This document shows, piece by piece, positions 7,604 to 62,974 of a DNA stretch of 64,000 bases; positions within the stretch are counted from its first letter, which is position 1, and each line of letters begins with the position of its first letter. The stretch lies in the sequence record JX128257; one strand, 5' to 3'. The notes under the pieces were generated by a model that did not search any database, was not told where the DNA came from, and saw nothing but the letters and a program-made list of their open reading frames with translations. Position numbers and translations under genes: made by a program. The stretch comes from Escherichia phage ECML-4.

Positions 7604-7650
7604 TAAATTAAGGGGAAGTATACCTTCCCCTTCTTCAATAAAATAAATTA

Positions 7651-9229: not shown

Positions 9230-9242
9230 CTTCTCATCTCAC

Positions 9243-10201: not shown

Positions 10202-10283
10202 CCCATTGTCCGAGTGACGGGGTTTCCGATGAATCCCCCTATGTTTGTTGGTTAAACAATGATACTTTAGTCAAGATATAGAA

Positions 10284-10306
10284 AAGCCCCTTTCGGGGCT
10301 TATTCT
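10284..10306. terminator. hairpin terminator (possibly bidirectional)
   Basis: AGCCCC-TTTC-GGGGCT with T-rich flanks. Confidence 0.5.
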
Positions 10307-10590
10307 TCATCAGATTTGAAAAGGTTCCATCGGCCTATTCCATACCATTCTCCAATATTGTTGGAGTAGCGGGTTGTCCTAACTCCACCGATTTCGTACC
10401 CCCATTTGAAGAAACTCCATCTTTCCTTTAGGGTGGGTGGTTTATTTCCGGTTGCCAAGGAGCAAGCTGTAAGCCAACGTGCGATACTAATGGCTTGAAA
10501 AATTGGATGAATAAACGAATAATACACAACACCCAGAGTTATAATGACGAAGACGCATGTCGTAATCAACCCGACAATTTCAAAGAACAT
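10300..10590 (-). CDS. small membrane protein
   Basis: 96 aa; N-terminal hydrophobic helix (LITTCVFVIITLGVVYY); terminator hairpin just downstream. Confidence 0.4.
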   Translation of the reverse strand: MFFEIVGLITTCVFVIITLGVVYYSFIHPIFQAISIARWLTACSLATGNKPPTLKERWSFFKWGYEIGGVRTTRYSNNIGEWYGIGRWNLFKSDEE

Positions 10591-10664
10591 TTATAACCCC
10601 CAATATTGAACACACACTATGATGAACGTTGTGATCGTGAATACCCAGGAGAAGATAGAAAGTT

Positions 10665-11297
10665 TCATTCTTCTACCTTTAGCCCCATCAGGTCTTCCAT
10701 GGTCTTCTGAATACGAAGCCAATCAAGAGCAGCGTCATAACGAGGATCGTGGTATACCATGCCTTCCAGTTCCCAAGCCTTGATACCAGCATAACGATCC
10801 TGTTGCCCAACGCCTTTCAGCCAGCTCACGATGTCGAAGGTGTGATGGTAATCCCAAGGCTCGTTGGAGTCCTGCTTACATGTCACCTCAATGATATGTT
10901 GGGCCTTGCGGAGATCAAACAAGTTTCGGTCACACCAGTCAACCGAGCGCGGGTCTATCCCAAGACGATGACAACCTTTGCGGATTTCATCGGCCAGCTG
11001 GAAGATAGAGGTGTCCTGATCGGTCGGGTACAGGCTGACAGCGCGAGCAGCATCACACGGGTTTCGCTTACCCGTACCTAACCACCATTCAACAGTCCCC
11101 TGATCCTTGACGCGGCCAAGTTTAGTCTGCTCTTTGACATCCAACTTTATGAACGTCGTTCGCTCTTCAACGAGTTGCTGAAGAGTGTAGCGTTTGGTCA
11201 GGTCGGCGATAGTATGCGCCCAGGATAACATAATAGCATCGTCCCAGCGCCCCAGAGTCTCGCTATCGGCGACAGCCAAGAAATTAGATTTATACAT
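10665..11297 (-). CDS. 3'-5' exonuclease, DEDDh (DnaQ-like; DexA-like)
   Basis: Exo I AVADSETLG, Exo II HHTFDIVSWL, Exo III YHDPRYDAALD. Confidence 0.65.
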   Translation of the reverse strand: MYKSNFLAVADSETLGRWDDAIMLSWAHTIADLTKRYTLQQLVEERTTFIKLDVKEQTKLGRVKDQGTVEWWLGTGKRNPCDAARAVSLYPTDQDTSIFQLADEIRKGCHRLGIDPRSVDWCDRNLFDLRKAQHIIEVTCKQDSNEPWDYHHTFDIVSWLKGVGQQDRYAGIKAWELEGMVYHDPRYDAALDWLRIQKTMEDLMGLKVEE

Positions 11298-11634
11298 CGG
11301 TTTCCCCCGCTTTCTCTAAAAGAAGTTTCAAAGGATATGTCCCACAAGCGGTGGCATATTCAACTCTGAAATATGAATTATCGTTCATGGCGAAATTGCG
11401 ATGAGGAAAATATTCACCATCATCAAAACCACCCATCCCTCCACCGACGCGATATTGTTTCAATTCTACTTCGCCACCGTAACGCAGTTGGGCGTAGAGA
11501 CCGATAGGAGCGCGAACATAATGCTCCAACCACACCCAATTACCGTCATGTAGACGGGTGGGTAAAAACGCAAACCGTACCTTGGGATGAAGAACGGCTT
11601 TAGCCAACATTTCTTCCGTCACTTCAGATTTCAT
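11290..11634 (-). CDS. hypothetical protein
   Basis: 114 aa ORF overlapping neighbours by 8 and 4 nt. Confidence 0.35.
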   Translation of the reverse strand: MKSEVTEEMLAKAVLHPKVRFAFLPTRLHDGNWVWLEHYVRAPIGLYAQLRYGGEVELKQYRVGGGMGGFDDGEYFPHRNFAMNDNSYFRVEYATACGTYPLKLLLEKAGETDV

Positions 11635-12236
11635 CCGATGCTTTCCTCTTCGATGACGTCTTCTTCATTAGGAACAACCGAGATCCCAAAGTCGATCATT
11701 TGAGAGAGTTCTTGTAAATCCTTTTCGAATCCATCCCCTTCCCGAATATAGAATACTGGGACCACGCGACGGCGAGTATCTTCAAAGATGGTTTCGGCGA
11801 TTTTGTTAATCTGGCCCACCACATGTGTGAGATTCAAGCCACCAATACCACAACCGATGGCGGGCAAACCGACATAGACAGTTTCATCAGCTTTGGCTTC
11901 AACGATATCATGAATTTGTTCAAACATGATCTGGACTGAGCTAATGATAGATGGCATGCGAGCATTGGGACCTGGGTAAAATTGAGTATACAAATTGAAT
12001 CCCCAGACACCAGTGTCATGATCAAACGCATAGGACATGTTTCCCAAGCGCTGTTCCGGACCACGTTCATCTAATTGGTCGGCGCGGTAAATCTCTGGGA
12101 AATTCAATCGAACGTGATTGGCGATACCCGCGCCCATTACAGACCAACAATTTGCGCCGTGAGCAAAGGCATTGATAAGATTGAAACTCGTGGCGGCTTT
12201 TAATAAATCGCCATTTGTGATAATATAAGTGGTCAT
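11631..12236 (-). CDS. macro domain protein (ADP-ribose binding/hydrolase)
   Basis: INAFAHGANCWSVMGAGIANHV matches the macrodomain N-x6-GGG-V-x2-AI signature; start moved to the ATG at 12236 forming an ATGA overlap with the upstream stop. Confidence 0.6.
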   Translation of the reverse strand: MTTYIITNGDLLKAATSFNLINAFAHGANCWSVMGAGIANHVRLNFPEIYRADQLDERGPEQRLGNMSYAFDHDTGVWGFNLYTQFYPGPNARMPSIISSVQIMFEQIHDIVEAKADETVYVGLPAIGCGIGGLNLTHVVGQINKIAETIFEDTRRRVVPVFYIREGDGFEKDLQELSQMIDFGISVVPNEEDVIEEESIG

Positions 12237-12469
12237 GCGTAACGTCTCCATTGTATAATTTCGTTGTCGACACAACTGACCTGAATGATACACATATTCT
12301 GGCGATGGTCGGTGAGTGTCATAATAAAACTGTCTGGTTGTGACATGACACGATTAACAGATATCCCGCGCGACATCAAACGAAAGCAAATTTCTTGATA
12401 CAAACGTTGCATATATCCTGAAACAGAAGCCGATTCATATGCGCGTTCAAATTCGTATAATTCGTTCAT
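12233..12469 (-). CDS. hypothetical protein
   Basis: 78 aa ORF, 4-nt overlaps on both sides. Confidence 0.35.
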   Translation of the reverse strand: MNELYEFERAYESASVSGYMQRLYQEICFRLMSRGISVNRVMSQPDSFIMTLTDHRQNMCIIQVSCVDNEIIQWRRYA

Positions 12470-12690
12470 TTATTAAGACCATTAATAGCATTTTCAGAGA
12501 TGTATTCGACGAATTGATTGTCAGCCGCCATTTTTAAAAGTTCAAACAATTCAGTTCCAACTGTACTCCCAAACATTCCTTCCAATACTCCTTGGACATC
12601 TTCATCTATTTCTTCGATGATGAGTCCATAAGATTTCAGGCGTCGCGAAATAGCACGGAACTGGGCAATATCTCCAATTTCATTTGCCAT
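12466..12690 (-). CDS. hypothetical protein
   Basis: 74 aa ORF; TATAAT-containing hairpin upstream. Confidence 0.35.
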   Translation of the reverse strand: MANEIGDIAQFRAISRRLKSYGLIIEEIDEDVQGVLEGMFGSTVGTELFELLKMAADNQFVEYISENAINGLNK

Positions 12691-12738
12691 GGTATTATCT
12701 CAATATGGGGTTAGGCGGCAATTATACCGCCATTTTCT

Positions 12739-13152
12739 TCAATAGAGGTCTTCGGAAAAGAGTTCACGGAAAGGAGTGTTCTTCAAACGAACTTGATTGG
12801 TTTGTCCAGCTTCACGGGCTACAATAGCCGCCTCTTCCCTAGACATCCATTGCCCATAGTTATCGATAAACCCTTGTTCACGCGTGCGGGTGTTTTCGAT
12901 AACACCTGCTTCCTTCAATCGTTTCAGTTGCGCATTCATTAATTTGTCGTGGTGACGGGCGCTTACAACGATGACATCACCATATCTGTTGGCAGCGGCC
13001 ACTACGCGGCGGTCAAATTTAGTTGGGTCTGGTATATCCCGAGCATATAGGGCGATATGGGTGTCGTCAACATCCCCTTTGACTTCAGAATATAACTGGC
13101 CACCATTAGGAGATCCAGTGGGTAAAGAACGAAAATAACCGAGTAATTTCAT
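12739..13152 (-). CDS. hypothetical protein
   Basis: 137 aa ORF. Confidence 0.4.
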   Translation of the reverse strand: MKLLGYFRSLPTGSPNGGQLYSEVKGDVDDTHIALYARDIPDPTKFDRRVVAAANRYGDVIVVSARHHDKLMNAQLKRLKEAGVIENTRTREQGFIDNYGQWMSREEAAIVAREAGQTNQVRLKNTPFRELFSEDLY

Positions 13153-13207
13153 AATCTAGTCTATCCATATTTCAGGTTCGGGGATATCAACCATCTCCAT
13201 TGACATA

Positions 13208-13519
13208 TTACGCCTCCACTTCTTCATCAGGAAAATAAGGGCGTAAATCCCCAATTAATTTAGGGAAGAGGGCAAACCCGAACAGATTAAAAGAACGCAT
13301 GGTCCCAACCATACCAACATCATCCAATTCGGTAACGTCAGAAAGGGCACACAACGGTATCCACACGTCTTCTTGTCCTTCGTAATTTACGAAGGCAACT
13401 TCCTCTTTGATGAATCGAGGACACAGAATATCAAACAGCCAATAGACGTATGCCAGTAATGAGAGACTGCGGAAATATACAAACATGGTGAACCCCTCAC
13501 AGGTTTGGAGGGAATTCAC
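13208..13519 (-). CDS. hypothetical protein
   Basis: 103 aa ORF. Confidence 0.35.
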   Translation of the reverse strand: MNSLQTCEGFTMFVYFRSLSLLAYVYWLFDILCPRFIKEEVAFVNYEGQEDVWIPLCALSDVTELDDVGMVGTMRSFNLFGFALFPKLIGDLRPYFPDEEVEA

Positions 13520-46718: not shown

Positions 46719-47332
46719 CTTCTGAATCCGGGAAGATCAGCAGGAACTATGAATCAAGTTAATTCAACCAACAGGAATCCTCGTGTTGCCCTTTGACGCA
46801 ACATTATGAACCCTCTATGAAGACTCATAATGTTGTCGGCGTGATGGAGATTAGCGCCCCCGACCTCCCCTTATATGTTGGTGTCGACTTGCCAACAGGG
46901 TGCTCTCTGATTCTGAGCTAATCACGCTACAACAGGGAGTTTCGTTCTCCGACGGTCAAGTGCGTCCACTGACACCAGCGAGGTGGATATTATGCCTCTA
47001 TTCACACAAGCCCCAGAGACTAGGGGTTCACTGTTTTCGGTTTCAAGCCTACTCACACTGTGCTGTTTCCCTCATGTTTGATACTTTACTGCAAGCCAGC
47101 CAATTTGAAAAATCCTCTCCCCTTTGAATTACACTGCCCACAGCAGTGCGGACGAACCTTCATTCAAAACCGGATGCGCCGAAATGGGCGACTGTGTACC
47201 GGACTGATCAGGTCGACCCAGGAGAGAGCAGGTAATCCCGATCAGGAGGATGAGGAGTAACATCATGTAAAACATAGTGTTCCCTCCCTTCCATGCAACT
47301 AACTTTACCGCATTTATTTATTGAATAAAGCG

Positions 47333-47902
47333 TTATTTTATCAATTCTAACTTCACAACGCGGCGCAGAAGGTAAACATATTCGCCAGCAGCTTCATGCG
47401 TCATATAATGGGTAGAAGGTGTGGAATGATTGTTCTGGGTTTCTTTTAATCCAACACGTTCTGCCCAACCATTAATCGAATTCCCATAGAATCCGATGAT
47501 CGCGCCGAAATAAATGCGCTGGCTCTCTGGTTCTAAAATATAGTTGACAGTGAAGCAGATGTCAGAACGAATAGATTCCAACTTTATACCGACCCGACCT
47601 TCAGAGAATTCGTTGCGAACATACAAATGACGAAAACGATCGCGTCGCGCTTGTGATGACTCTTCCAATTCTTGGCGAAGTGAGGATGTTGCATCGATAT
47701 TAAATGAAAATGTCGGGTTTTGCAAATCGGTACGGGCTAACTCTAATGCTGATTCAACAACACGGCGGAAATTGATACTTTTACCTGTCAGACGTTTCAC
47801 TTCATCTGTGATTGTTCCAAAAGGGATTTTCGTGGCGCGTTCTCCTTCGTATTTCGCCAATAAAGGAATAATGTGTTTCATGATTGCTGTGTTAATGTGC
47901 AT
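47333..47902 (-). CDS. hypothetical protein
   Basis: 189 aa ORF; first minus-strand gene next to the divergent switch region. Confidence 0.45.
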   Translation of the reverse strand: MHINTAIMKHIIPLLAKYEGERATKIPFGTITDEVKRLTGKSINFRRVVESALELARTDLQNPTFSFNIDATSSLRQELEESSQARRDRFRHLYVRNEFSEGRVGIKLESIRSDICFTVNYILEPESQRIYFGAIIGFYGNSINGWAERVGLKETQNNHSTPSTHYMTHEAAGEYVYLLRRVVKLELIK

Positions 47903-48265
47903 TTCCTGAGCCTCGTCAAATTAATTAAATGTCCCCACTATTATATTGGGAATATGTTTATTGAATATAACCCCAAGAAAGGCCAATAAAATAATGACAG
48001 CGATTATTAATAGGTAAAAACTACTTTTCTACAACATCAAGAAACTGTATCTTAACGCGGTGCCCTTCGAGTTGTGAGTGTTAACGAACAACGAGAAGCA
48101 GCCTCCATGGCTGCGGAATGGGACTGCCTGTCAAGGCGGTGTTACGAGCGAGGGCGTCAGCCCCCTCGCGAGTATATTCGAATAAATTAACGCGCGAGAG
48201 CGTTTTGATTCCCTTTGGCTAAATATCTTCAACACCATATTCAAACTCAGGTGATGGAGATTATC

Positions 48266-50047
48266 ATGGCCACGCAAACAGTTCCTTCACTCGACGTCAG
48301 AGCCTTTGAGTACATTATCAAACAGCGAATGAAAGCTGATCCCACCTTTAAAGATTATGACTTTGAAGGTTCCGGTCTTAGTGCTATTATTCGTTTGTTG
48401 GCATCTGATGCGAACGCCATAGCCTTTATGCAGAACATGCTTAATGGTGAAGGCCATTTAAAAACAGCAAATCAACGTTCTAATGTTGGTTTGTCTGCTG
48501 CTTTTCTTTCTTACACCCCCGACAACTATCGGGCGGCATACATGTATGCCAACATCAAAGTAACGCCGTATGACGCTAGCACAGCTCCTAATGAGATCAT
48601 TATGGACCGCCGTGTGATGTTCGTTGGTGCAAAAGATGGTAGTTCCTACAACTTTACTGTTGAGAACCCCGTGTCCGCCACGTTGACTGCAGACGGTTAT
48701 TACATGTTCAACAATGTAAAGCTGATTCAGGGTAACTGGTTGTACAAGACTTATGATGTTGAAGGAAGCGCGATTTCGACTTATACGATACCTTCGGAAA
48801 ATGTTGATATCAATCATCTGGTCGTACAGGTACAGGAATCAGAGTCCTCTGATGTTTCAACGACATACCAGAGATACAACAGTCCATTTGACCTGAGCCA
48901 ATATGCCTACCTGTATTTCGTAGAATTAGGCATTGACGGTCTGTATGTGTTTGAATTCGGAGATGGTTATCTTTCGCGTCGAGTAGAAGATGGCAACGTC
49001 ATATTCCTTCAATACTTGGAAACTTCTGGTGCTGATGGAAATGACATCACAAGCCTGTCGTCAGCGTCTTCCATAGGCGGGTTTAACCAAGTTGATGTAG
49101 AATTAGTTTCCGAACGTAGCGCGGGCGGGGACAATCCGGAATCCATTGAAGACACCAAACGGTTGGCTCCTTTAGCTTATCAGGCTGATGGTGCTGCGGT
49201 TACAGAAACCGATTATGGCGTATTGACCGAAAGGTTATTCTCCAACGTCGCCCGTGCTAAATCATATGGCGGTGATACGCTTTCCCCTCCGGATTCTGGT
49301 TACGTTTATATCGCTGTGATACCATCTGTTGGGGAGACTCTTTCAGACGCAGAGAAGGCTGATATCGTTGCCGCGTTGGACAAATACAACGTTGGGTCCA
49401 TCACCCCCAAAGTAGTAGATTCTGAGATCACATATATCCAAGTCGCCACGACTATATTTTGGGATCCGACTTCAACGGTTTATGTTGAAGAACAAATGAA
49501 AGTGGTGGTGGGTAATAGTATCACCAAATGGGGTGAAAACAATCTCGGCGGTTTTGATCAGTTATTCGACAAAGAGATATTGCAGGAAGCAATTACGAAA
49601 ATGGAACGTTCCATTAACTCAAATATCACGTCTGTCGGTTATAAACGTCATTTCAAACCTGATTATGGTGTGTTGGATAGCTTTACTTTCAGTTATGGGA
49701 GAAGCATTAAACCTGGTTCTGTGAAAATAACAGGGTTTAAACCGCTTCCGGCCGAAGTTGATTTCACATATTATATGCGCGATGACAATGGCGATTTGAA
49801 CATGTATAAAGTGAACAACAACGACACCACTAAAGAATTTTTGGTTCAAAAGACTGGTGTTGTGGATTACGCCAACGGCGTCGTAGATCTTCAGCAGATT
49901 ACGGTTTCAAACTATAATACTGAAGGAGTAACGATCGTTGTGCTACCAGATGGCCTGAATCAGAATATACAGGCTTCACAAAACCAGGTATTCAAAATCG
50001 GTGATGTGGTTGTTACGCCAGAGGTGCGCTATGTCCAAAGATCTTAA
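48266..50047 (+). CDS. putative baseplate wedge protein (gp6/J-like)
   Basis: start at ATG 48266 (GGAG SD); about 594 aa; first gene of the plus-strand late module, upstream of fiber and tailspike genes. Confidence 0.4.
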   Translation: MATQTVPSLDVRAFEYIIKQRMKADPTFKDYDFEGSGLSAIIRLLASDANAIAFMQNMLNGEGHLKTANQRSNVGLSAAFLSYTPDNYRAAYMYANIKVTPYDASTAPNEIIMDRRVMFVGAKDGSSYNFTVENPVSATLTADGYYMFNNVKLIQGNWLYKTYDVEGSAISTYTIPSENVDINHLVVQVQESESSDVSTTYQRYNSPFDLSQYAYLYFVELGIDGLYVFEFGDGYLSRRVEDGNVIFLQYLETSGADGNDITSLSSASSIGGFNQVDVELVSERSAGGDNPESIEDTKRLAPLAYQADGAAVTETDYGVLTERLFSNVARAKSYGGDTLSPPDSGYVYIAVIPSVGETLSDAEKADIVAALDKYNVGSITPKVVDSEITYIQVATTIFWDPTSTVYVEEQMKVVVGNSITKWGENNLGGFDQLFDKEILQEAITKMERSINSNITSVGYKRHFKPDYGVLDSFTFSYGRSIKPGSVKITGFKPLPAEVDFTYYMRDDNGDLNMYKVNNNDTTKEFLVQKTGVVDYANGVVDLQQITVSNYNTEGVTIVVLPDGLNQNIQASQNQVFKIGDVVVTPEVRYVQRS

Positions 50048-52124: not shown

Positions 52125-55100
52125 ATGGCCAACAAACCAACACAGCCTCTTTTCCCTTTGGGTTTAGAAACTTCGGAGTCTTCGAACATAAAAGGCTTCA
52201 ACAACTCCGGCACCATAGAGCATTCCCCTGGTGCAATATTGACGTTCCCTGAAGATACTGATGTTGCGGGTCTCCCATCTTCTGTGCGTTACAATCCTGA
52301 TAGTGATGAATTCGAAGGTTATTACGAAAATGGCGGGTGGTTGTCTTTGGGCGGCGGTGGAATACGCTGGGAAACGCTCCCATACGCTCCCTCCAGCAAT
52401 CTGTTAGAAGGGCGCGGCTATCTCATTAATAACTCCACTGGGACTTCTACGGTGGTTCTTCCTTCCCCTACGCGCGTTGGTGACTCGGTTACAATTTGTG
52501 ATGCCTATGGTAAATTCGCGACGTATCCATTGACCGTATCTCCAGCGGGAAATAACCTGTACGGCTCCACCGAAGATATGACGATATCCACCGATAACGT
52601 GTCGGCGACTTTCACTTGGTCTGGTGCTGAGCAGGGTTGGGTTGTTACATCTGGTGTTGGCCTCGGTCAAGGTCGTGTGTACAGTCGAGAGATTTTCACT
52701 CAAATTTTAGCATCTGATACAAATGAAGTGACTCTCAACATCCCTCCGACAATTGTGGACGTGTACACTGATGGGAAACGCCTTACAGAATCCAAATATT
52801 CTTTAAATGGAAACGTAATCACTTTCGACCCTTCTTTACCTGCTGGCACTGAATTGCAGGTAATAGAATATACTCCGATTCAGTTAGGTACTGGCGGCGG
52901 GGGTTCGGGCGCTTCTGCAATCACCTGGATTTACAATGGCGGATCCGCTATCGGCGGCGAAACCGAAATAACGCTAGACATCGTTGTAGATGATGTTCCG
53001 GCTATTGATATAAACGGGTCTCGTCAGTACAAAAATCTTGGATTCACGTTCGACCCATTGACGAGTAAAATCACTCTGACGCAAGAACTGGAACCAGAAG
53101 ATGAAGTTGTTGTGGTTATAAATGGGACACCAAACATCTATAACCAGATCGATCGTTCTTTACAGGAAGTTGCTCGCGCCTACAATTTTACAAATGCTCA
53201 AGTTATTTTGAGCAACGATTATACTTCTGTGCTGGATAATAAAGTCGTTATTTATGATACGACATCCCAACGTTCTTGGGGGATTCCATCTGGAATTCCA
53301 GCAGGTTCTACAGTGGTTTCCGTCAATGGGGATCAACTGAAATACAAAAATGGATCAACTGAAACCACTGTTACATTGGTGAGCGTACCAGGTAGTGCAG
53401 AGAAGTTGAAGAACGATCTGGCGTCGAACTCTGGCGCGGGTATGTTGAAAACTTCTAGAGGTGATACCGTAGAAGAAGAATTGACTTTTATTAATCAGAA
53501 TATGGTCGTTCAAATTTCAGATTTCGCGAGCCTTAGAACTTTAGTGCCAGCCACAGCGGGCATCCGAGTCAAATTGAAAGGTTATTATTCTGGTTCTGAA
53601 ATTGGTGGCGGAGAATTCATTTCCGTCGCTGGTGATGCTGTTGATGATGCTGGGATGATTGCTCGAGTGTCAAGCAGCTTCTATTGGAAGAGAATTATCG
53701 ACAAACATATTACTCCTGGTATGTATGGCATCAAAGGGAATCTTCCAGAAGATCCGGCAGTGAAACTGAACGCTATGTTTGCGGCTGCGGCTGCGGCTAA
53801 CGCTTATGTCTTACTGAACGATGTCGATACTCTGGTCTGTAAAAGCCCTGTCGTGATCCCAGCACATTCATTAGTGTACGGCAACAAGCGGACCATATTG
53901 AAACGTGATGCATCGTTGTCATATGCTAATGATTTCTTGACAATTATGAATGATTCATATGTCAAGGGGATCTATGTTGATGGTAGCCGTTTAGATTCTC
54001 AGACTCCGCTAGAAGCAGTTTTGGTGCGCATCGCTGGGAATGTGACTATCCATAAGAGCGAGATCCGAAACAATGCTGGCTATGGCGTTGTTGGTAACGC
54101 AGTCCCTGGCATTCGTATCACCAAGAACATTTTTTCCAACTTCGCCAAAGGTTGTGTGGCTATGTTTGGTGACGGAACGGCGACGAGTGATGATCTGCAA
54201 ATTAATGATAACAGATTCTTTAACCTGGGCGCGGGAACCATTTATGTTGGCGGTTACTCAAACTTCCTTGTCGACAAAAACGTCGGAAGAGGCACTTACG
54301 TGGGTTCTCCAGGAAACCGTCTGTATGTTGTGACCAATACCAACGGGACTATCACCCAAAGCGCTGGGCCAGATTTTGGGGCGCTGAAAACGGGTATGTT
54401 CTTTGTATTGCCTGGTGGTTCTGAACATATGATAACGGCAGTCAACAGCCTTACAAGTGTGACAGTAACCCCAGCACCTCCGTCGAATGCAACGGTTCGT
54501 GCAATTGCTGGGACAGGGGATCTTCTGGGCATCCAATCATGCTCCTACGGCACCATCAGCCGTAACAACCTGACCGATTGTGTGACTTACGGAACTGGTG
54601 GAGGCACGATGGAGGGGAGCACTCTGGGGTGCAATTATGTCACATGGGAAGACAACTTCATCCGCAACACAGGTAAGAACGGAATCAACGTCGGGCAATC
54701 AGGCGCTGGGGTCGCCACGTGTTCAATCCTGAGGAACACTCTGATACAGGTTGGTAACGGCGGTCAGGGTGTTGGCCCAGCGTATCTTCTGCCTTGGTTC
54801 GATACGGTAGGTATTGCTCTGTATCAGGGAAACCCAGGTTATATGGCGAATATGGACGTCAGTGATAACAACGTCTCTACATGGTCTGGCGATCTGAATG
54901 ACGGCGCTGCTTGGTTTGGTATGAGCGGTTGTACGGAAGCCACTGTGACTTGTACAGGCAACAAATCTTCTGGTTATTCCGACGGCTATGTTCGTGGAGA
55001 TATATTAGAAGTCACGTTGACAGGTTATGGTACAGGGGCGGCTGCGACTTCATTCGTTAGTGATGGTGAGTCTATACAGATAACTGTTCAAACAGGTACT

Positions 55101-55298
55101 TCACCAACAGCTTCTCCTTATTTTTCAGTGCGGAAGGCGATCCGCACCCGCCATCAACCGATGATAACGGCGCAGATCGTCACCACAACTGGGAACATGT
55201 CTCATTGTTGGGGTATGCAATCTAGTACAGCAGGAAATTGGATGGTGGGTCAGAATACAACTCCTTCAGGGGTCACGACGTATTACGCAAAAGGGTAA
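52125..55298 (+). CDS. tailspike protein (1057 aa) with beta-helix region
   Basis: internal module IDRSLQEVARAYNFTNAQVILS...VVIYDTTSQRSWGIP homologous to the other three tailspikes; C-terminal Gly/Asn/Thr-rich repeats typical of right-handed beta-helix. Confidence 0.75.
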   Translation: MANKPTQPLFPLGLETSESSNIKGFNNSGTIEHSPGAILTFPEDTDVAGLPSSVRYNPDSDEFEGYYENGGWLSLGGGGIRWETLPYAPSSNLLEGRGYLINNSTGTSTVVLPSPTRVGDSVTICDAYGKFATYPLTVSPAGNNLYGSTEDMTISTDNVSATFTWSGAEQGWVVTSGVGLGQGRVYSREIFTQILASDTNEVTLNIPPTIVDVYTDGKRLTESKYSLNGNVITFDPSLPAGTELQVIEYTPIQLGTGGGGSGASAITWIYNGGSAIGGETEITLDIVVDDVPAIDINGSRQYKNLGFTFDPLTSKITLTQELEPEDEVVVVINGTPNIYNQIDRSLQEVARAYNFTNAQVILSNDYTSVLDNKVVIYDTTSQRSWGIPSGIPAGSTVVSVNGDQLKYKNGSTETTVTLVSVPGSAEKLKNDLASNSGAGMLKTSRGDTVEEELTFINQNMVVQISDFASLRTLVPATAGIRVKLKGYYSGSEIGGGEFISVAGDAVDDAGMIARVSSSFYWKRIIDKHITPGMYGIKGNLPEDPAVKLNAMFAAAAAANAYVLLNDVDTLVCKSPVVIPAHSLVYGNKRTILKRDASLSYANDFLTIMNDSYVKGIYVDGSRLDSQTPLEAVLVRIAGNVTIHKSEIRNNAGYGVVGNAVPGIRITKNIFSNFAKGCVAMFGDGTATSDDLQINDNRFFNLGAGTIYVGGYSNFLVDKNVGRGTYVGSPGNRLYVVTNTNGTITQSAGPDFGALKTGMFFVLPGGSEHMITAVNSLTSVTVTPAPPSNATVRAIAGTGDLLGIQSCSYGTISRNNLTDCVTYGTGGGTMEGSTLGCNYVTWEDNFIRNTGKNGINVGQSGAGVATCSILRNTLIQVGNGGQGVGPAYLLPWFDTVGIALYQGNPGYMANMDVSDNNVSTWSGDLNDGAAWFGMSGCTEATVTCTGNKSSGYSDGYVRGDILEVTLTGYGTGAAATSFVSDGESIQITVQTGTSPTASPYFSVRKAIRTRHQPMITAQIVTTTGNMSHCWGMQSSTAGNWMVGQNTTPSGVTTYYAKG

Positions 55299-55348: not shown

Positions 55349-57232
55349 ATGATTTCTCAATTCAATCAACCACGCGGCTCCACTTCCATAGAAGTTAACA
55401 AACAATCTATCGCTCGAAATTTCGGTGTCAAAGAAGACGAAGTCATTTATTTCACTGCTGGTATTGATCTCAGTGGATTTAAAGTAATTTATGATGAGTC
55501 TACCCAACGGGCTTATTCTCTCCCTTTCGGTATTGTTTCAGGGACAACTGCAATTAGTCTGGATGAAAGAGCTATCCTCACTCATTCCGCTGGCTCTGTT
55601 GACCTTGGGGAATTAGCAGTAAGCCGCGAAGAATATGTGACTTTACCTGGTTCTTTTAATTTCGGCCATACCATTAATGTGAAAAATGAACTTCTTGTTC
55701 ACGATGATAAAAAATATCGATGGGATGGCACATTACCTAAAGTTGTTCCTGTTGGATCAACTCCTACAACAACTGGGGGAATTGGGGTTGGTGCATGGTT
55801 GAGTGTTGGTGATGCATCGCTACGTGGTGAATTATTTTCAGAATACATCTTATACAAAACACCTCAGGCATTTGGTGCTATTGGTGATGGAGTTGCTGAT
55901 GACACTTTATCACTGCAAGATGCAATGGATTACTGTCAGGTTCACAACGAGAAACTTGTTATCCCATCAGGACGCTATCGAATCACCAAGCCACTGCTAT
56001 ATCGCAACCAGGGTTTTTATAACTATGAGATTGAAGGGCAGGGAGGTGCTGCTGTAATCATCATGGATTCTCTGGAAAAAACTGGAATTACTGCTCCTGA
56101 TGCCTTTGGCGATGATTTTAACGTTAACGCAGCGATGGTAGTTCTGAATGACACTAACCAGAGTAAGTATTGCCGCATTAGTGGATTGCGTTTCGAATCA
56201 CCAGTTGGTGCTGAATATGCTATTTATGTTGGTCAGGCAGAAAATACGTATATCCATGACTGCTTCTGGACTGGTTTCACCTTTGGGTGGTATGACCTTG
56301 GATCATGGGTTACACGCGTAGAACGCTGTATTGCCAGGGATATTGTAGATACTGGGTTCTTTAAGAAAAATGGCACCAGTACCTACATAGCTGAGTGTTA
56401 TGCAGACAGGATGATGCGAGGGTATTACCTCGGGGGTGGGTATTCGGCTATCATAAATTGTGCTTGCGATTTAACCACTCGCTGGGGGTTCTATCTATAT
56501 GGTGGTAGGACTGGTTCTGATTTAGCAACATTCTCTATTAAAGGTTGTGGTTCAGAGCAGTCTGGAACTGATTCTGTATTTTATGTTGACGGGCTAGTTG
56601 CGCTGTCTATAGAGGACCACAACGCAGGTAATGACCCAACTGTTCAACCAGCACCTGCTGCGTTGCTTAGCATGGCTTCGAATACATCATATTCACAAGT
56701 GGTGCTGAAAAATATTAGGACAGTAAATGTGGATACATTAATTTTGGATTCTGCTGACCATAATTATTTTGATTTAACAAATGTCACATGCCGCAGCGAG
56801 ATGTCGAAAGAATTTTATCTCGGTACGAATTCAAGAGTTTTAAAAAGGTCATATGATGGTGAAAGATTCATTACTAGCAACGACCAAGTTGGCATTGGCT
56901 TTGCGGAGTCTGATATTGTTGATGGATGGACAGATCTCACTTTGTCTGGACTAAGAAATGGACAATTTATAATTAGGAGGACTGTAAGCATACCCAGAAC
57001 TTCAGGGGATGCTGGGGCGGTAACTATCACGATGCCATTAAATATGGATACGAATTATACCGTAGCTGCCACTCTGGAGGGTGAATTTAGTCAACTGCAA
57101 TCCATTTGCCCTGTGTTCAGTGTTACAGATAAAACATCATCTAGTTTTTCTTTGTGTGCATCGTCTGCAAAGAATAATACAACATGGTCAGCTATAGATG
57201 TTGAGGTGATTATATATGGGCTGAAATCGTAA
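55349..57232 (+). CDS. tailspike protein (627 aa), pectate-lyase-like beta-helix
   Basis: N-terminal anchor shared with the 60707 gene (KVIYDESTQRAYSLP...HSAGSVDLGELA...LPGSF); FGAIGDGVADDTLSLQDA resembles the Pectate_lyase_3 signature. Confidence 0.8.
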   Translation: MISQFNQPRGSTSIEVNKQSIARNFGVKEDEVIYFTAGIDLSGFKVIYDESTQRAYSLPFGIVSGTTAISLDERAILTHSAGSVDLGELAVSREEYVTLPGSFNFGHTINVKNELLVHDDKKYRWDGTLPKVVPVGSTPTTTGGIGVGAWLSVGDASLRGELFSEYILYKTPQAFGAIGDGVADDTLSLQDAMDYCQVHNEKLVIPSGRYRITKPLLYRNQGFYNYEIEGQGGAAVIIMDSLEKTGITAPDAFGDDFNVNAAMVVLNDTNQSKYCRISGLRFESPVGAEYAIYVGQAENTYIHDCFWTGFTFGWYDLGSWVTRVERCIARDIVDTGFFKKNGTSTYIAECYADRMMRGYYLGGGYSAIINCACDLTTRWGFYLYGGRTGSDLATFSIKGCGSEQSGTDSVFYVDGLVALSIEDHNAGNDPTVQPAPAALLSMASNTSYSQVVLKNIRTVNVDTLILDSADHNYFDLTNVTCRSEMSKEFYLGTNSRVLKRSYDGERFITSNDQVGIGFAESDIVDGWTDLTLSGLRNGQFIIRRTVSIPRTSGDAGAVTITMPLNMDTNYTVAATLEGEFSQLQSICPVFSVTDKTSSSFSLCASSAKNNTTWSAIDVEVIIYGLKS

Positions 57233-57269
57233 TTATTGTATTAAATAAATAACTTATCTTTTATTAAAA

Positions 57270-57296
57270 AACCCCGCTTCGGTGGGGTTAGTTTTT
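57270..57296 (+). terminator. rho-independent terminator
   Basis: AACCCCGCTTCGGTGGGGTT hairpin followed by GTTTTT. Confidence 0.6.
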
Positions 57297-57846
57297 AGAA
57301 GTTGTTGATGGTAATCGGCGATGATTGCTCATTTTGTTTTGGGTAATTCTTCGATCTTCAGTCGTTAAACGCCATCATTGCTGCTTCCCATCCCAGCGCC
57401 ACACACACACACACTATGCATCCGGCATTTAAAGATGCGGAAAGGTAATCAATCTGGCCTTCCTCCCAATCGCTAATTGTGTGGTCTTTCCTCTTGCTTC
57501 TGGTGTTTCTTTGTCCGGCGCTGGGAATTATATGGTAATTTCGGGAAACACGTTGATGGCTAATAACCCATCTGCGCCTGAAAATATAACTTTGTATCAG
57601 GTCACAGGTGCGCAGAGTTGGGTGGCCCATTATGAAACTATCAGATGTGTTCGAAATGATTTCAAATCTGCGCTGTTGGCGATTAATGCAACAGGGACAG
57701 CACAATCTGGTTTGAGTACTACCAATAAATTCTGGTTCGGGGATAACGCGACGATCAATACCACGGTTGTTTGTACTTATCCTGCTGGCAACAAAGCCAA
57801 CACCGATATCACTCAGACAGTTTCAGTTTAAATTGAATTGAGCCTA

Positions 57847-57881
57847 AATACCCCATATTGGCAAATCCTTTATGGGGTATT
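57847..57881 (+). promoter_or_regulatory. conserved ATACCCC/GGGGTAT hairpin upstream of a tailspike start codon
   Basis: AATACCCCATA ... TATGGGGTATT, about 35/40 identical to the 55311 copy; track ORF starts at an ATG inside the 3' arm. Confidence 0.5.
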
Positions 57882-57886
57882 TTCAA

Positions 57887-60652
57887 ATGACCAGAAATGT
57901 AGAAGAATTATTCGGCGGCGTAGTCACAGCTCCCCACCAGATTCCTTTCACTTATAAATCAAGTGTCGGTGGAGAAACTTTCTTTTCTCTACCTTTCTAT
58001 CCTGTCACTGGTGTTGTCACAATCAACGGTGGTATGCAAGTTCCGTTAGAGAACTTCGAGATAGACGGGAATACGTTGAATCTCGGGCGCGCATTGTCCA
58101 AAGGCGATGTTGTGTATTGCTTATTCGATAAAATTCTTTCACCAGAAGACACTGCCAAAGGCATCCGCATATACAAATTTCAAGCCGTGGGTGGAGAAAC
58201 CGAATTCACGCCTGACTTTACTTCTTATGGTGTACAGTCTCTTTATATCGGTGGCGAATACAAAACTCCTGATATAGAATATTCATACAACAGTACGACT
58301 GGGAAAGTGTCTTTGCAAACTGCATTGACTGCAGGCGTTTGGGTAGTCGCTGAAATCTCTGTTAAACAACCGAATATCAGTCCGGCGTTTGACCGCAGTA
58401 TTCAAGAAATTGCCCGTTCTGCTAATGTGAAAGACTCTGAAGTCATCGTTAGTACGGACACCATATCTTTGTTGGATGGGAAGAAAGTTGTTTATGACAT
58501 AGCGGCACAAACCAGTTATGGTTTACCAACCATTCCTGATGGTTCTGTCATTTCTACGATCTCAGACGGGAAATTGAATTACAACCCAGGTGATGTGCAG
58601 GTTGATTTGTTGCCTTTAGAAGATTCATTTATTAATGTGATAAACACTCTGGGGCGCAATGATGGTGCCAAGTATATCGGAGAATGCCATTCTGTTGCTG
58701 ATCTCAGGAATACTGAACCCACTATGGATGGACAACGCATTATTCTTAAGCAACACACTGCGGGTACTCTTCTTGGTGGAGGGGTATTCCGTGCGTTAAT
58801 TGATGGTACAGGAAAGACTGATGATAACGGTACTGTGATCAAAACTGTTGGCGGCGCAGCCTGGTTACGTGTTAATGCTGATAGAGTTAACCCATTCATG
58901 TTTGGTGCTTTGGGTGGTTCTAATGATGATACTATTCCAGTACAATCTTGTGTGGACAGTGGTAAGGCCACACAATTAACTGGTATACATTACGTTAGCA
59001 ATATCCAGTTAAAATATAATACGTCGTCTATTTATGGGTCTGGATTACATTACTCCAGGTTGCATCAGTTGCCTTCTGCTACTGGGAATTGTATTACCAT
59101 AAAAGATACATGCTCCCTTATTGTATTAGACTCCTTTGGGGTATATGGCACAGGTGCACAACAAGGCACATCATTTACTGCGGGTACAACAGGTATCTAT
59201 ATAGAAACTCCTTCAGGTCTCTCAGCCGATTATCCGTTCCACACTACCGCAGACCCAAGACGCGACTTGTGTATTTCTAAGGTCCATATAGCAGGTTTTG
59301 ATGAATATGGGTTAAATATTGATAGTGGTAACTTTAGTGTTACTACAGATTCTCTTTTAGTCAACCACATCAATCAGGTGGGCGTCCGTTGTGCTACTAC
59401 TGATTGGACTTGGACAAATATCCAGGTTAATACCTGCGGTAAACAATGTCTGGTTCTTGATGGTTGTGGTAATGGTCGTATTATTGGTGGTAAATTCATT
59501 TGGGCTAACTGGCAACCTTATGGTACAGTAGGACAGTTCCCAGGCATTACTATTAATAATAGCCAGAATATGGTTATTAATGGTATTGAGGTACAAGATT
59601 GTGGCGGGAATGGCATTGAGATTAGCGATTCATATTCAATTTCCATGAACGGATTGAACACCAATCGTAACGGCATCAACGCTAACAACACTTTCTACAA
59701 CATCGTATTTAACAAAAGTGATGCAGTTATCAACGGATTCGTAGGACTCAATTATGCCGCGAATAGTGGTTCAGGTGCTAACTCTAGTGCGGGCAATTTT
59801 CAGTTCCTGTCTAATGATTGCAGCGTCACCATTAATGGTGTGGTTGAGACTGGTTATATGGGCATTAACTTTATTGGTGATAACAATATTATCAACCCCA
59901 CAAATTCCGACCTGAGCATTAACGGATTGGTTAATTATTCCAAGACTGGTTTGCAAACCATGAACGAGACCCCTACATTTGATGGTGTTAGCACTACACC
60001 TGTTTATGTAAGTGTCCCATCTTCTGTAGGGCAAGTAAATGGTCTGAGACTATCACAAGCCAACAAAGATAAATTACTGTACTCAAGAACAGCAGGTCCA
60101 GAAGGTATTACCATGGCTGCTGTTGTAGTACCTACCATATCTGGAGCTGAAGTATTTAACTTCATGGCCATTGGTTCAGGGTTTAGTGATACATCCAACA
60201 GTCTTCATCTTCAATTAGTTATAGACGCTTCCGGAAAACAAACAATTGCTTTGCTATTGGGGGGCGATGGTACAACCCAAATTTTATCTGGGGATTTACC
60301 TAACGACCTTAAACTACAAAGTGGTGTGCCATATCATATAGCTATTGGTGCTAAACCTGGATATTTCTGGTGGAGTATTCTTAATATTCAGACGGGTAAG
60401 AGAATCAGACGGTCATTCCGAGGCGCTTATTTAGCTGTACCATTTAATTCTATATTCGGATTAACTTCTTCATTAACATTCTTCTCGGATAGCAATGCTG
60501 GTGGGGATGCCTGTTCTGGTGTAGGTGCTAAAGTGTATGTTGGTATGTTCTCTTCTGAGAATGATTATGTAGCTTCACGGTACTACAACCTGATTAATCC
60601 TGTAGACCCTAATAAGTTAATTAGTTACCGTATATTGGATTCTTCTATTTAA
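57887..60652 (+). CDS. tailspike protein (about 921 aa) with beta-helix region
   Basis: start set to ATG 57887 by analogy with the other tailspikes; module FDRSIQEIARSANVKDSEVIVS...VVYDIAAQTSYGLP homologous to the 52125 gene; Gly/Asn-rich repeats. Confidence 0.75.
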   Translation: MTRNVEELFGGVVTAPHQIPFTYKSSVGGETFFSLPFYPVTGVVTINGGMQVPLENFEIDGNTLNLGRALSKGDVVYCLFDKILSPEDTAKGIRIYKFQAVGGETEFTPDFTSYGVQSLYIGGEYKTPDIEYSYNSTTGKVSLQTALTAGVWVVAEISVKQPNISPAFDRSIQEIARSANVKDSEVIVSTDTISLLDGKKVVYDIAAQTSYGLPTIPDGSVISTISDGKLNYNPGDVQVDLLPLEDSFINVINTLGRNDGAKYIGECHSVADLRNTEPTMDGQRIILKQHTAGTLLGGGVFRALIDGTGKTDDNGTVIKTVGGAAWLRVNADRVNPFMFGALGGSNDDTIPVQSCVDSGKATQLTGIHYVSNIQLKYNTSSIYGSGLHYSRLHQLPSATGNCITIKDTCSLIVLDSFGVYGTGAQQGTSFTAGTTGIYIETPSGLSADYPFHTTADPRRDLCISKVHIAGFDEYGLNIDSGNFSVTTDSLLVNHINQVGVRCATTDWTWTNIQVNTCGKQCLVLDGCGNGRIIGGKFIWANWQPYGTVGQFPGITINNSQNMVINGIEVQDCGGNGIEISDSYSISMNGLNTNRNGINANNTFYNIVFNKSDAVINGFVGLNYAANSGSGANSSAGNFQFLSNDCSVTINGVVETGYMGINFIGDNNIINPTNSDLSINGLVNYSKTGLQTMNETPTFDGVSTTPVYVSVPSSVGQVNGLRLSQANKDKLLYSRTAGPEGITMAAVVVPTISGAEVFNFMAIGSGFSDTSNSLHLQLVIDASGKQTIALLLGGDGTTQILSGDLPNDLKLQSGVPYHIAIGAKPGYFWWSILNIQTGKRIRRSFRGAYLAVPFNSIFGLTSSLTFFSDSNAGGDACSGVGAKVYVGMFSSENDYVASRYYNLINPVDPNKLISYRILDSSI

Positions 60653-60653: not shown

Positions 60654-60677
60654 AATATACCCCTCTTCGGAGGGTAT
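60654..60677 (+). promoter_or_regulatory. ATACCC hairpin with TTCG tetraloop upstream of fourth tailspike
   Basis: ATACCCTC-TTCG-GAGGGTAT followed by T-run; AGGAGA SD then ATG 60707. Confidence 0.5.
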
Positions 60678-60706
60678 TTACTAGAGAAAAACAGGAGATT
60701 CTTATT

Positions 60707-62941
60707 ATGAATCCGCAATTTGCTCAACCAAAAGGTTCTACTTCAAAAGAATCGAACAAAGACAGTATTGCTCGTAAATTTGGGTGTAAAAAGTCGGAAG
60801 TCGTTTATGCGAAATCAGGACAGTCCTTGTCTGGATATAAGGTTATTTATGACAAGGAAACACAGAGAGCGTATTCCTTGCCTGTAGATATTCCAGCAGG
60901 AACCACGGCTATTAGCCTTAGCGCCAGTGCTCTGCTTGTACACTCTGGGGGTTCTGTAGACCTGGGCGAACTAGCTTCCCAACGCAATGAATATAATGTA
61001 TTACCTGGTTCTTTTACTACTGGTGCAATAGTATCCACAAAGAATGATGTACTTACCCACAATGGTATCCAGTATCGTTGGAATGGTTCATTACCTAAAG
61101 TTGTACCTCAGAACTCTTTACCATCCAGTGATGATAATTGGATTGGCTTGGGTGCTTCTTATCTGAAGGAACAGCTTAACAGTACCAGTGGTGCATCCAT
61201 GGTAGTACTGGCTAATGGCAAAACCATTGAAGAAGAATTTGCCGAAGAAGCTGCATGGCAGAACCAAGAGAATATGGTGAGAACCGTTATTCCTAATGTT
61301 TATCACCATATCCGTGGCGTTCAGCGTCACTCTGGTAAAAACTTAGCATGGTCTGCTCCAGACGTTGCTATTGATAAACTTAACCCTACGGATACCGTCT
61401 TCTACCGTATGCCCCAGATTGTTAAAACTGGTGATGGTACTCTGATGATTTTCTGTAATGAGTTGCATGGTAACAATACAGATATTGGTGCTACTCCAGA
61501 TCAGCAATGTAATATCGTTATGAAATACTCCATTGATAATGGGTGGTCTTGGTCGGCTAAGGTAGTGGTAGCTAACTTTGGGGCTACGTATCAGAACGGT
61601 GAGATTGCTGCTGTGTATAACCCAGTAGATGGTCGGGTATACTGTTACTTTACTTCCTGCAAAGGCCAGTTGGGTTGGGGATACTCACAGCCAGGCAATG
61701 ACCCTAATACATCATCCCAGATATATGTTACCTACTGTGATGCGGAAGCTCCTACTATATGGCGTACACCAGCTAACATTACTGCTACCCTTAAGCCAGC
61801 AACGGCAGATTTTATCTGGACTTCACCAACTAAACCAGTTGTTTTACCGGATGGTAAGATGGCAATGATTGTGTCTACCGTCACTGGTTCACGGGTTGAT
61901 TCTTTCCTTACCATCATGAAGTATGACATTAAGTACAGCATGGACTACGTACTTAGTTCCGAAGAATCTGGTGGGGAAGTCGGACTGAACCTTTTGCCGG
62001 ATGGTCGTATGGTGATGAACTCTCGTGCTTACCACACCACAGACCTTAAAGGGCTTCAGAAATTCTATATCAGTGATCATCAGTTTAAGAACTGGCAGCA
62101 CTTATCTGATTTAGTTACATCGGATAGTAAGGGTGACCTGGTTCCTATTTTTGATGGGGTTAATGGTGTTCTTACTTGGGCGTTTACTTGTGCTAATGGT
62201 GTAGGTGATAATTCTATTGGTCGTACTAACTACCGAGTATGGATTAGTCGTGACCTAGTTACTTGGGGGTTAGCTCCTACTGGGGATATCAACACAAGTG
62301 ATTCTGTTGGGTACATCGCATCAATGCCTGGTGGTGATGATGGTTATGTAATCTCTACATCTGAATCAGGTGGTTTTGGTGGTATTTGGTTTACTCAATG
62401 GAATGCTAAGTATATCCAGAACAGAAACTACAACCGCTATCACAAAGAGTTGCGAGAATTAGAGTCAGTAGATGAAACAGCAATGCTCGCATCCGGCGCT
62501 ATTCCTAACTACTCTTTTTACGTAAACAAAGACTCCAACCTAATTAACTTCAACCGCAACGGTACTCCAGTTAAGATTCAGCAATTGGGGGTTAGTCAGA
62601 ATGCTGTTGATAAGTACACTACAACTCAGACCCTAGCATCTATTCCTGTAGATGGTGTTGATATTGTATTAGTCACTGGTTCCGGTATTACTCTTACCCT
62701 TAGTGGGTTTAGCGGTGGATATATGGGCCAGCGTGTGACAGTTATCTCTGATTCATCTGGTGGTGGGGTAGTGCTTAAACGTGCTGATACAACATTGCCT
62801 ACTGTAACGGACAGATTCCACTTTAATGTGGCAGGAGCCTTTACTGCTTTGAGGGTAGACTATGCAACTAAGATGATGGTTACTTTAGTTAAGACTCCAT
62901 CTGGTTGGTTCACGGAAAGTATTGCTAACGTAACAATCTAA
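60707..62941 (+). CDS. tailspike protein (744 aa) with Asp-box (BNR) beta-propeller-like domain
   Basis: N-terminal anchor KVIYDKETQRAYSLP...HSGGSVDLGELA...LPGSF; Asp-box-like SIDNGWSWS and SRDLVTWG in the C-terminal half. Confidence 0.75.
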   Translation: MNPQFAQPKGSTSKESNKDSIARKFGCKKSEVVYAKSGQSLSGYKVIYDKETQRAYSLPVDIPAGTTAISLSASALLVHSGGSVDLGELASQRNEYNVLPGSFTTGAIVSTKNDVLTHNGIQYRWNGSLPKVVPQNSLPSSDDNWIGLGASYLKEQLNSTSGASMVVLANGKTIEEEFAEEAAWQNQENMVRTVIPNVYHHIRGVQRHSGKNLAWSAPDVAIDKLNPTDTVFYRMPQIVKTGDGTLMIFCNELHGNNTDIGATPDQQCNIVMKYSIDNGWSWSAKVVVANFGATYQNGEIAAVYNPVDGRVYCYFTSCKGQLGWGYSQPGNDPNTSSQIYVTYCDAEAPTIWRTPANITATLKPATADFIWTSPTKPVVLPDGKMAMIVSTVTGSRVDSFLTIMKYDIKYSMDYVLSSEESGGEVGLNLLPDGRMVMNSRAYHTTDLKGLQKFYISDHQFKNWQHLSDLVTSDSKGDLVPIFDGVNGVLTWAFTCANGVGDNSIGRTNYRVWISRDLVTWGLAPTGDINTSDSVGYIASMPGGDDGYVISTSESGGFGGIWFTQWNAKYIQNRNYNRYHKELRELESVDETAMLASGAIPNYSFYVNKDSNLINFNRNGTPVKIQQLGVSQNAVDKYTTTQTLASIPVDGVDIVLVTGSGITLTLSGFSGGYMGQRVTVISDSSGGGVVLKRADTTLPTVTDRFHFNVAGAFTALRVDYATKMMVTLVKTPSGWFTESIANVTI

Positions 62942-62948
62942 AATACAA

Positions 62949-62974
62949 GCCCCCAATAAGGGGGCTTTCTTTTG
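62949..62974 (+). terminator. rho-independent terminator
   Basis: AGCCCCCAATAAGGGGGCT hairpin followed by TTCTTTT. Confidence 0.6.

Follow-up and report, generated by a model that had tools for sequence, protein, structure and literature searches.

The stretch of Escherichia phage ECML-4 DNA analysed in this study (JX128257; 64,000 nucleotides (nt), hereafter termed the window) ends with a cluster of four tailspike genes, which is typical of Kuttervirus (Ackermannviridae). Coordinates are window positions throughout, except where another locus is named. All four genes lie on the plus strand, and their open reading frames (ORFs) are arranged in the order TSP4-TSP3-TSP2-TSP1. The last of them, the TSP1-position gene, is followed by the start of vriC, as judged by synteny with phage AR2819, and encodes the spike that is the subject of this study. 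This spike corresponds to the Sorensen subtype TSP1-20 (ECML-4 gp189 type), as listed in Table 10 of PMC10892097, and is covered end to end by the family PHROG 35653. It would be composed of three modules, a Kuttervirus TSP1 docking head, a propeller of the glycoside hydrolase family 33 (GH33) type and a small C-terminal beta-sandwich. The features of the locus are summarised in Table 1.

Table 1. Features of the spike gene and its surroundings. The last three rows refer to positions in other loci. aa, amino acids or residue numbers of the spike; AF2, AlphaFold2; pLDDT, predicted local distance difference test score. Catalytic roles are those of the aligned positions in canonical sialidases.
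Feature	Coordinates	Strand	Description	Basis or conservation
TSP1-position tailspike gene	60707..62941	+	744 aa plus stop, ATG start	ORF list
Ribosome-binding site AGGAG	60694..60698	+	8 nt upstream of ATG	direct sequence reading
N-terminal TSP1/TSP3-type head (TD1-TD2)	60707..61156	+	aa 1-150	
Linker/neck	61157..61318	+	aa ~151-204; predicted helix 174-192	pLDDT <50 over much of it (AF2)
Six-bladed GH33-type sialidase propeller	61319..62416	+	aa ~205-570	AF2, Foldseek, profile search, hhalign
R234, first triad Arg	61406..61408	+	YRMP versus canonical F/YRIP	conserved in close family
D259, general acid/base	61481..61483	+	NNTDIG versus canonical D-L-P	invariant in 21 diverse relatives
Asp-box 1, SIDNGWSWS	61529..61555	+	aa 275-283; blade 1, strand 3-4 hairpin (strands 267-275/286-289)	
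E424, Glu partner of nucleophile Tyr	61976..61978	+	GGEVG versus Glu of E-x(15)-R	invariant
R440, second triad Arg	62024..62026	+	NSR versus N-M-R	invariant
R506, third triad Arg	62222..62224	+	RTNYRVWIS versus RTNMTVKIS	in 20 of 21 relatives
Asp-box 5, SRDLVTWG	62246..62269	+	aa 514-521; blade 5, strand 3-4 hairpin (strands 506-514/520-526)	
Y536, catalytic nucleophile	62312..62314	+	VGYIAS versus SAYSC	invariant in 21 relatives
E553	62363..62365	+	STSE versus canonical 'LYE' Glu	conserved in close family
C-terminal beta-sandwich domain	62444..62938	+	aa ~580-744	
Intrinsic-terminator-like hairpin	62947..62967, with T-tract to 62975	+	8-bp stem with 6 GC pairs; 6 nt past spike stop	
TSP4-type gene	52125-55298	+	1057 aa	
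TSP3-type gene	55349-57232	+	627 aa	
TSP2-type gene	57872-60652	+	926 aa	
Acyl_transf_3 gene, Enterobacter prophage locus	12475-13503			
Acyl_transf_3 gene, S. diarizonae remnant	11433-12461			
Acyl_transf_3 gene, IMG/VR contig	7662-8714			

The AF2 model of the spike contains 24 strands that are arranged as six four-stranded blades, with a pLDDT of mostly 80-95 in the propeller and a mean of 69.7 for the whole protein. When this model was compared with the structures in the PDB by Foldseek, all 50 matches listed were GH33 sialidases, KDNases or sialidase-derived proteins. The best match is 8gn6, with an expectation value (E) of 4.5e-18. The target-normalised template modelling score ranges from 0.44 to 0.76 over the listed sialidases, and approximately 365-400 columns are aligned for propeller-only targets, with an identity of only 12-19% to the solved sialidases. 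A single-sequence search detects a P. gingivalis sialidase at E 1e-9, together with approximately 25 other sialidase entries. A profile constructed from 12 family members detects Parabacteroides BDI_2946 (4fj6) as the best PDB match at E 7e-20, followed by approximately 50 sialidase, KDNase, anhydrosialidase (4x47) and trans-sialidase entries, and hhalign aligns the spike with a canonical metagenomic sialidase with a probability of 98.8%. These results agree with the initial annotation, in which a sialidase-like beta-propeller head was proposed for this spike. The predicted structure is a propeller and not a beta-helix, and both motifs on which the proposal was based lie within blade hairpins. 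Among the three families suggested there for comparison, GH33 is retained, and GH58 and GH93 are not, as described below.

These two motifs, SIDNGWSWS and SRDLVTWG, are Asp-box-like as proposed, and both are located in canonical hairpins according to the MAFFT alignment and the AF2 model. The strict consensus S-x-D-x-G-x-x-W is found solely in SIDNGWSWS, and SRDLVTWG is a degenerate box, in which Gly is deleted. When the spike protein is shuffled, a strict Asp-box arises in 0.8% of cases, and the three neighbouring tailspikes do not contain one. SRDLVTWG is without significance when it is taken alone, and its weight comes from its position. When the spike is aligned with canonical GH33 sialidases, SIDNGWSWS coincides with Asp-box 1 and SRDLVTWG with Asp-box 5, whereas the canonical boxes 2 and 4 are aligned with two more degenerate boxes, YCDAEAPTIW (aa 343-352) and SDHQFKNW (aa 456-463). 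Thus, the propeller contains one strict Asp-box (aa 275-282) and three degenerate ones at canonical positions (aa 343-352, 456-463 and 514-520). Asp-boxes are structural elements, and their number varies among true sialidases.

The catalytic residues were assigned by means of MAFFT, with which the propeller was aligned to seven canonical sialidases and four members of its own family, so that the assignment is based on alignment and not on geometry. All seven canonical catalytic positions align with the spike and are conserved down to approximately 20-35% identity. Among 21 relatives, some of which are only 18-22% identical, D259, E424, R440 and Y536 are never replaced. An independent check is available for D259, which is aligned with the residue that differs between wild-type P. 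gingivalis PG_0352 and its D219A mutant (PDB 8t26). R506 is located 8 residues ahead of the Asp-box Ser, as in the aligned canonical sialidase. The role of E553 is presumably to stabilise the first triad Arg, as in GH33 structures. As far as can be judged from the alignment, all catalytic positions of GH33 are conserved in the spike.

The spike is best compared with the bacterial GH33 exo-alpha-sialidases, represented by PG_0352 (8gn6/8t1y), BDI_2946 (4fj6), Sialidase26 (6mrv) and T. forsythia NanH (7qy9), with which it shares the propeller, the F/YRIP motif, the catalytic set and the Asp-box positions. It differs from them in its low identity (12-19%), in the degeneration of three of the four aligned Asp-boxes, in the possession of its own motifs, and in the replacement of the 'DAR' Arg by Leu and of the 'GDP' Asp by Glu. 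In addition, its propeller is joined to a tailspike head and a beta-sandwich, and not to a carbohydrate-binding module or a signal peptide.

Judging from this combination of fold and residues, the spike is probably a virion GH33-type retaining glycosidase that recognises and cleaves an ulosonic-acid glycoside of a surface polysaccharide. Catalytic activity, an ulosonic-acid substrate, trimeric assembly and the choice between endo and exo cleavage are the parts of this model that we infer. The propeller would be the receptor-binding and receptor-destroying module. The carboxylate at C1 would be gripped by R234, R440 and R506, and the sugar would be a 2-keto-3-deoxy (ulosonic) one, such as N-acetylneuraminic acid (Neu5Ac), a legionaminic/pseudaminic-type acid, 2-keto-3-deoxynononic acid (Kdn) or 2-keto-3-deoxyoctonic acid (Kdo). 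Activation by E424 would allow Y536 to attack C2, which would give a covalent intermediate, and D259 would serve as the acid/base, in a retaining double displacement as in exo-sialidases. The substrate would be the O-antigen, or possibly the capsule, of some Enterobacteriaceae host, and the phage would reach the outer membrane when this polysaccharide is cleaved or trimmed. The host specificity conferred by the propeller spike would then be independent of that of the three beta-helix spikes. It was proposed in the initial annotation that the receptor chemistry of this spike differs from that of its neighbours, with a sialic-acid-type capsule or another glycan as the receptor. A different receptor chemistry is a reasonable prediction, because the carboxylate-binding Arg triad and the Tyr/Glu pair are conserved. 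A capsule is no more likely than an O-antigen as the receptor.

Relatives of the spike also have a tailspike context. A word-indexed search of 5.8 billion proteins detects only about a dozen relatives, and a second homologue search with a profile adds just three proteins. An exhaustive profile search of 1.84 billion representatives detects 27 clusters at E <1e-30, beyond which the matches merge without a break into the GH33 superfamily. At E <=0.001, 1,691 proteins are matched. The close relatives are proteins of 580-930 aa with other phage anchors (a T7-tail N-terminus or a TSP1/Gp66 head). They include E. coli proteins and tailspikes of Enterobacter hormaechei prophages, which are encoded within a podovirus-like tail module that adjoins the lysis cassette. 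Many relatives are named 'exo-alpha-sialidase' or 'sialidase family protein' by NCBI, and the members of the S. diarizonae cluster bear the names 'exo-alpha-sialidase' or 'glycoside hydrolase'. The motifs FTSCKG and CNELHG are invariant in the family and absent from canonical GH33. The homologue in Salmonella diarizonae (remnant locus 8419-11134) is a 377-aa fragment that begins within the propeller and lies directly downstream of an insertion sequence (IS) transposase gene (rve family), near thrS-infC-pheST. It is a decayed, IS-truncated prophage spike.

Four loci of temperate phages or prophages were examined, and in three of them a gene for a membrane acyltransferase (Acyl_transf_3) adjoins the spike gene (Table 1). 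Two of these acyltransferase genes are orthologous (64% identical), and the third is unrelated. The presence of an acyltransferase gene beside a spike gene is the usual arrangement of receptor-modifying seroconversion genes and thus supports a polysaccharide receptor. The acyltransferases may be seroconversion proteins that acetylate the receptor of the spike.

A distant subgroup of the family includes gp163 of the Aglimvirinae phage RPN242, which is encoded at the TSP4 position (locus 5369-8530), and CDS0004 of the Gamaleyavirus phage nithesis, a branching tail protein (2444-5530). In this subgroup, the first triad Arg is replaced by Phe or Tyr (Gln in one member) and the E553-equivalent by Asn, Asp or His; in RPN242 gp163 and nithesis CDS0004, the replacements are Phe and Asn, respectively. 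A Lys is gained at position 253, and D259, E424, R440, R506 and Y536 are retained. Substrate binding of the distant subgroup probably differs.

Several results weigh against the assignment of the spike as a GH33-type glycosidase for ulosonic acids. The Pfam family BNR_2 (PF13088) does not match the spike at E <=0.1, and the NCBIfam neuraminidase model NF052328 gives 38 bits against a cut-off of 900. Precomputed PF13088 matches are present in some homologues, part of them marked as faint. These curated Pfam and NCBIfam thresholds are missed, and the propeller is a divergent member of GH33 and not a textbook one. The canonical 'DAR' Arg, which is located 19 residues past the first triad Arg, is L253 in the spike, and the canonical 'GDP' Asp is E299. 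We take these two positions to be R56 and D100 of S. typhimurium NanH, which presumably contact O4 of sialic acid, and a literature search gave no confirmation of this role. With at least one canonical substrate contact changed, the spike may act on something other than plain terminal Neu5Ac. Members of GH33 are normally monomers with an exo mode of action. The literature examined reports no activity, receptor or host for subtype TSP1-20. When the spike module and the Enterobacter prophage gene were compared with 5,426 complete E. coli genomes by blastn in distant mode, no match was found, and a scan of the GTDB species-representative genomes detected no relative. These E. coli and GTDB scans tied no host with a related prophage to a sialic-acid O-antigen.

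The changes at the two O4-contact positions (Leu for the R56-equivalent and Glu for the D100-equivalent) and the presence of just one canonical Asp-box would also be compatible with a lectin-like propeller, in which the sialidase fold holds the glycan and does not cleave it, and the loss of the first Arg in the distant subgroup indicates that the scaffold tolerates changes of the active site. Such a binding-only role is nevertheless unlikely, because the Arg triad, the Asp, the Tyr/Glu pair and the stabilising Glu are kept across relatives that are 30-48% identical, which would be unexpected if binding alone mattered. The spike might instead be an active enzyme for a non-ulosonic glycan, or might catalyse another reaction, as a lyase, an intramolecular trans-sialidase or a transglycosylase. 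This alternative is suggested by the identity of only 12-19% to solved sialidases, by the family's own invariant motifs and by the presence of anhydrosialidases among the matches (4x47). We consider it rather unlikely, since the Arg triad serves to bind the C1 carboxylate next to the anomeric carbon. To our knowledge, every GH33 activity described in CAZy acts on ulosonic acids. The sole non-sialidase propeller that is matched, the GH93 arabinanase 3a71, is detected only at E 0.67 in the PDB profile search, with no significant stretch, and the GH93 fold was rejected.

The altered O4-contact position also bears on the mode of cleavage by the putative GH33-type enzyme. O-antigens with Neu5Ac within the chain are found in Salmonella O48, E. 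coli O24/O56/O104/O171, C. braakii O37 and H. alvei 2, and the sialic acid of these O-antigens bears the next sugar on C4 or C7 (PMC9631793). It is a speculation that the altered position fits such a C4/C7-substituted in-chain substrate and endo action. The data agree equally well with an exo mode, in which a terminal or side-chain residue would be trimmed. It is possible, as a tentative proposal, that the spike is an endo-acting retaining GH33 'endo-sialidase', which cuts a heteropolymeric O-antigen at an in-chain residue of sialic or another nonulosonic acid substituted on O4/O7. In this case, the loss of the O4-binding Arg (Leu253) would open the pocket into a cleft. Endo action would make the spike an example of a GH33-scaffold enzyme with a new activity, and its depolymerase mechanism would be distinct from those of exo-sialidases and GH58 endosialidases. 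A receptor class would then also be assigned to an entire family of spikes encoded by prophages of Enterobacter, E. coli and Salmonella.

The GH58 tailspikes, such as endoNF of K1F and gp143 of phi92, resemble the spike in that they are phage spikes with a sialidase-like, receptor-destroying propeller, and they have a similar overall role. A GH58-type endosialidase that acts on polysialic acid capsules (K1/K92), as these tailspikes do, is extremely improbable in the present case. Neither the PDB sequence search (E up to 1) nor the list of 50 Foldseek matches contains an endosialidase, and the GH58 fold was rejected on this basis. The architecture of GH58 spikes comprises a lectin-barrel insert, a stalk formed by a triple beta-helix and an S74 chaperone at the C-terminus, and their mechanism is inverting. 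The Pfam search detects no GH58-type domain in the spike, with neither Peptidase_S74 nor any other family matching its C-terminal part. Furthermore, GH58 enzymes are not known to possess a Tyr nucleophile or the complete Arg triad, and the spike has both. The C-terminal beta-sandwich of the spike is possibly involved in trimer assembly and/or glycan binding.

The head of the spike (approximately aa 1-150) matches those of other tailspikes in the PDB, with E values of 7.9e-54 for Gp48 (9d84), 1.3e-48 for CBA120 TSP3 (5w6f), 3.1e-48 for G7C gp63.1 (4qnl) and 4.7e-47 for CBA120 TSP1 (4oj5), and its residues 91-141 match Pfam PF18668. Heads of this type dock the spike onto the branched tailspike complex (PMC8432352, PMC11721090), and the docking site in CBA120 is the XD3 domain of TSP4. 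The head of the ECML-4 spike would fix it to the complex in the same manner. GTTAISL (aa 65-71) is the counterpart of GTTAVSL, for which a role as a recombination site was proposed by Sorensen et al. The similarity to other Kuttervirus TSP1 genes at the DNA level stops past approximately nt 151 of the gene, which is consistent with module swapping.

The spike thus shares the TD1-TD2 head with CBA120 TSP1 (4oj5) and other Kuttervirus TSP1/TSP3 proteins, and its gene occupies the same last position before vriC. The solved CBA120 spikes are right-handed beta-helices (PMC11721090), whereas the receptor-binding module of the ECML-4 spike is predicted to be a propeller. The trimeric right-handed beta-helix module of the solved Ackermannviridae spikes is not found in it. 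The n-bladed beta-propeller is the second most common fold of phage depolymerases, accounting for 12% (PMC11326577) and 18% (PMC12491483) of the folds detected, and its properties in phages are described as unclear in both studies. These surveys (DepoScope and Klebsiella prophages) give no enzyme family or mechanism for the propellers, whereas the propeller described here is GH33-like and has a full catalytic set. The spike also shares its N-terminal head with the esterase G7C gp63.1 (4qnl). If it is exo-acting, it would modify the receptor and leave the backbone uncut, as do gp63.1 and the Vi-antigen acetyl esterase of Vi01. These two proteins are esterases, whereas the spike has a glycosidase fold, and the chemistry would be different.

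Neither the sequence of the spike nor its label in databases is new. Its gene is 100% identical at the nt level in 13 records and at least 99.3% identical in 14 Kuttervirus records. The phages with the identical gene include FEC14, 3HA11, FSL SP-029/063, Sajous1, Guerrero and FrontPhageNews, and the identical protein is recorded for ECML-4. Three GenBank records label the gene as a putative exo-alpha-sialidase, and BFVD contains scattered viral proteins that are annotated with sialidase domains. The words 'sialidase' and 'propeller' are absent from Sorensen 2021, from the 2024 Ackermannviridae review and from the E. coli tailspike-serogroup study, and Gil et al. (PMC9965104) mention neither 'sialidase' nor ECML-4. 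The orphan TSP1 of SPTD1 was considered as a possible member of this subtype and was not retained; Gil et al. give no link between the two and describe its receptor-binding region as unique among Ackermannviridae. The contributions of the present analysis are residue-level arguments for an intact GH33 active site, the change at the O4-contact position, the distribution of the family with its spread as a module, and the association with acyltransferase genes.

The protein is abundant in virions: gp139 of Sajous1, the product of a 100% nt-identical gene, gave 113 spectra when purified virions were analysed by mass spectrometry (PMC10892097). This abundance bears on the possibility that the spike is a non-functional passenger, of which only the head matters by completing the tailspike complex. 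A passenger-type role has been suggested by Gil et al. for TSP1 and TSP4 of SPTD1 (PMC9965104), and the fact that no host is reported for the ECML-4 spike would agree with it. Such a role is highly unlikely for this spike, because its ORF is intact and nearly invariant among the 14 phage records, the protein is abundant in virions, and the catalytic residues are conserved in a family that spans several phage types. Like the three alternatives considered above, it is disfavoured, mainly because the full catalytic set is conserved and the matches are exclusively GH33.

Ackermannviridae are under development for biocontrol and diagnostics, and the prediction of host range from tailspike subtypes is an active effort. 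TSP1-20 is present in at least 14 sequenced phages, several of which were isolated on E. coli O157:H7, alongside Salmonella isolates. If correct, the GH33 assignment narrows the search for the receptor to a short list of strains with surface polysaccharides that contain sialic/nonulosonic acids or Kdo. Among these strains are several pathogens in which such sugars serve molecular mimicry. The spike would be a ready-made, virion-stable enzyme to detect or strip such sugars.

The three neighbouring tailspikes are of the beta-helix type, as stated in the initial annotation. TSP2 is virtually the same as CBA120 TSP2, an O157-specific beta-helix spike (PDB 6w4q, 2046 bits). The N-terminus of TSP4 matches CBA120 TSP4-N (7rej), and its C-terminal part matches Pfam Beta_helix. 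The C-terminal part of TSP3 matches a pectate-lyase-like Pfam family. The receptor-binding part of TSP3 (55817-57232, the C-terminal two-thirds) has no Kuttervirus record among the megablast matches listed. Its best matches, with approximately 81% nt identity, are the tailspikes of the ~45-kb E. coli phages M01, CR01 and UTEC10, and the DNA that flanks it is 95-98% identical to that of phage AR2819. By nucleotide comparison, it looks as if this module was imported recently from a phage of an unrelated type. TSP3 and TSP2 are separated by a spacer of 640 nt (57233-57871), which contains a 116-aa ORF (57481-57831, plus strand). The product of this ORF and the C-terminal end of Vi01 'tail spike 3' share 96.6% identity. 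This ORF appears to be the leftover 3' end of an earlier TSP3 gene, which would represent the scar of a module swap.

GC-rich hairpins are located at both ends of the spike gene, one after the TSP2 stop codon (60661-60674) and the other after its own stop codon (62947-62967). In this region, 10 terminator-like sites are found, as compared with 1.8 expected from shuffles. The GC skew is negative over almost all of the first 48 kb of the window and positive thereafter, with the change of sign near 48 kb (~47000-49000). This change may be the sign of a switch to the other coding strand before the baseplate and tailspike genes.

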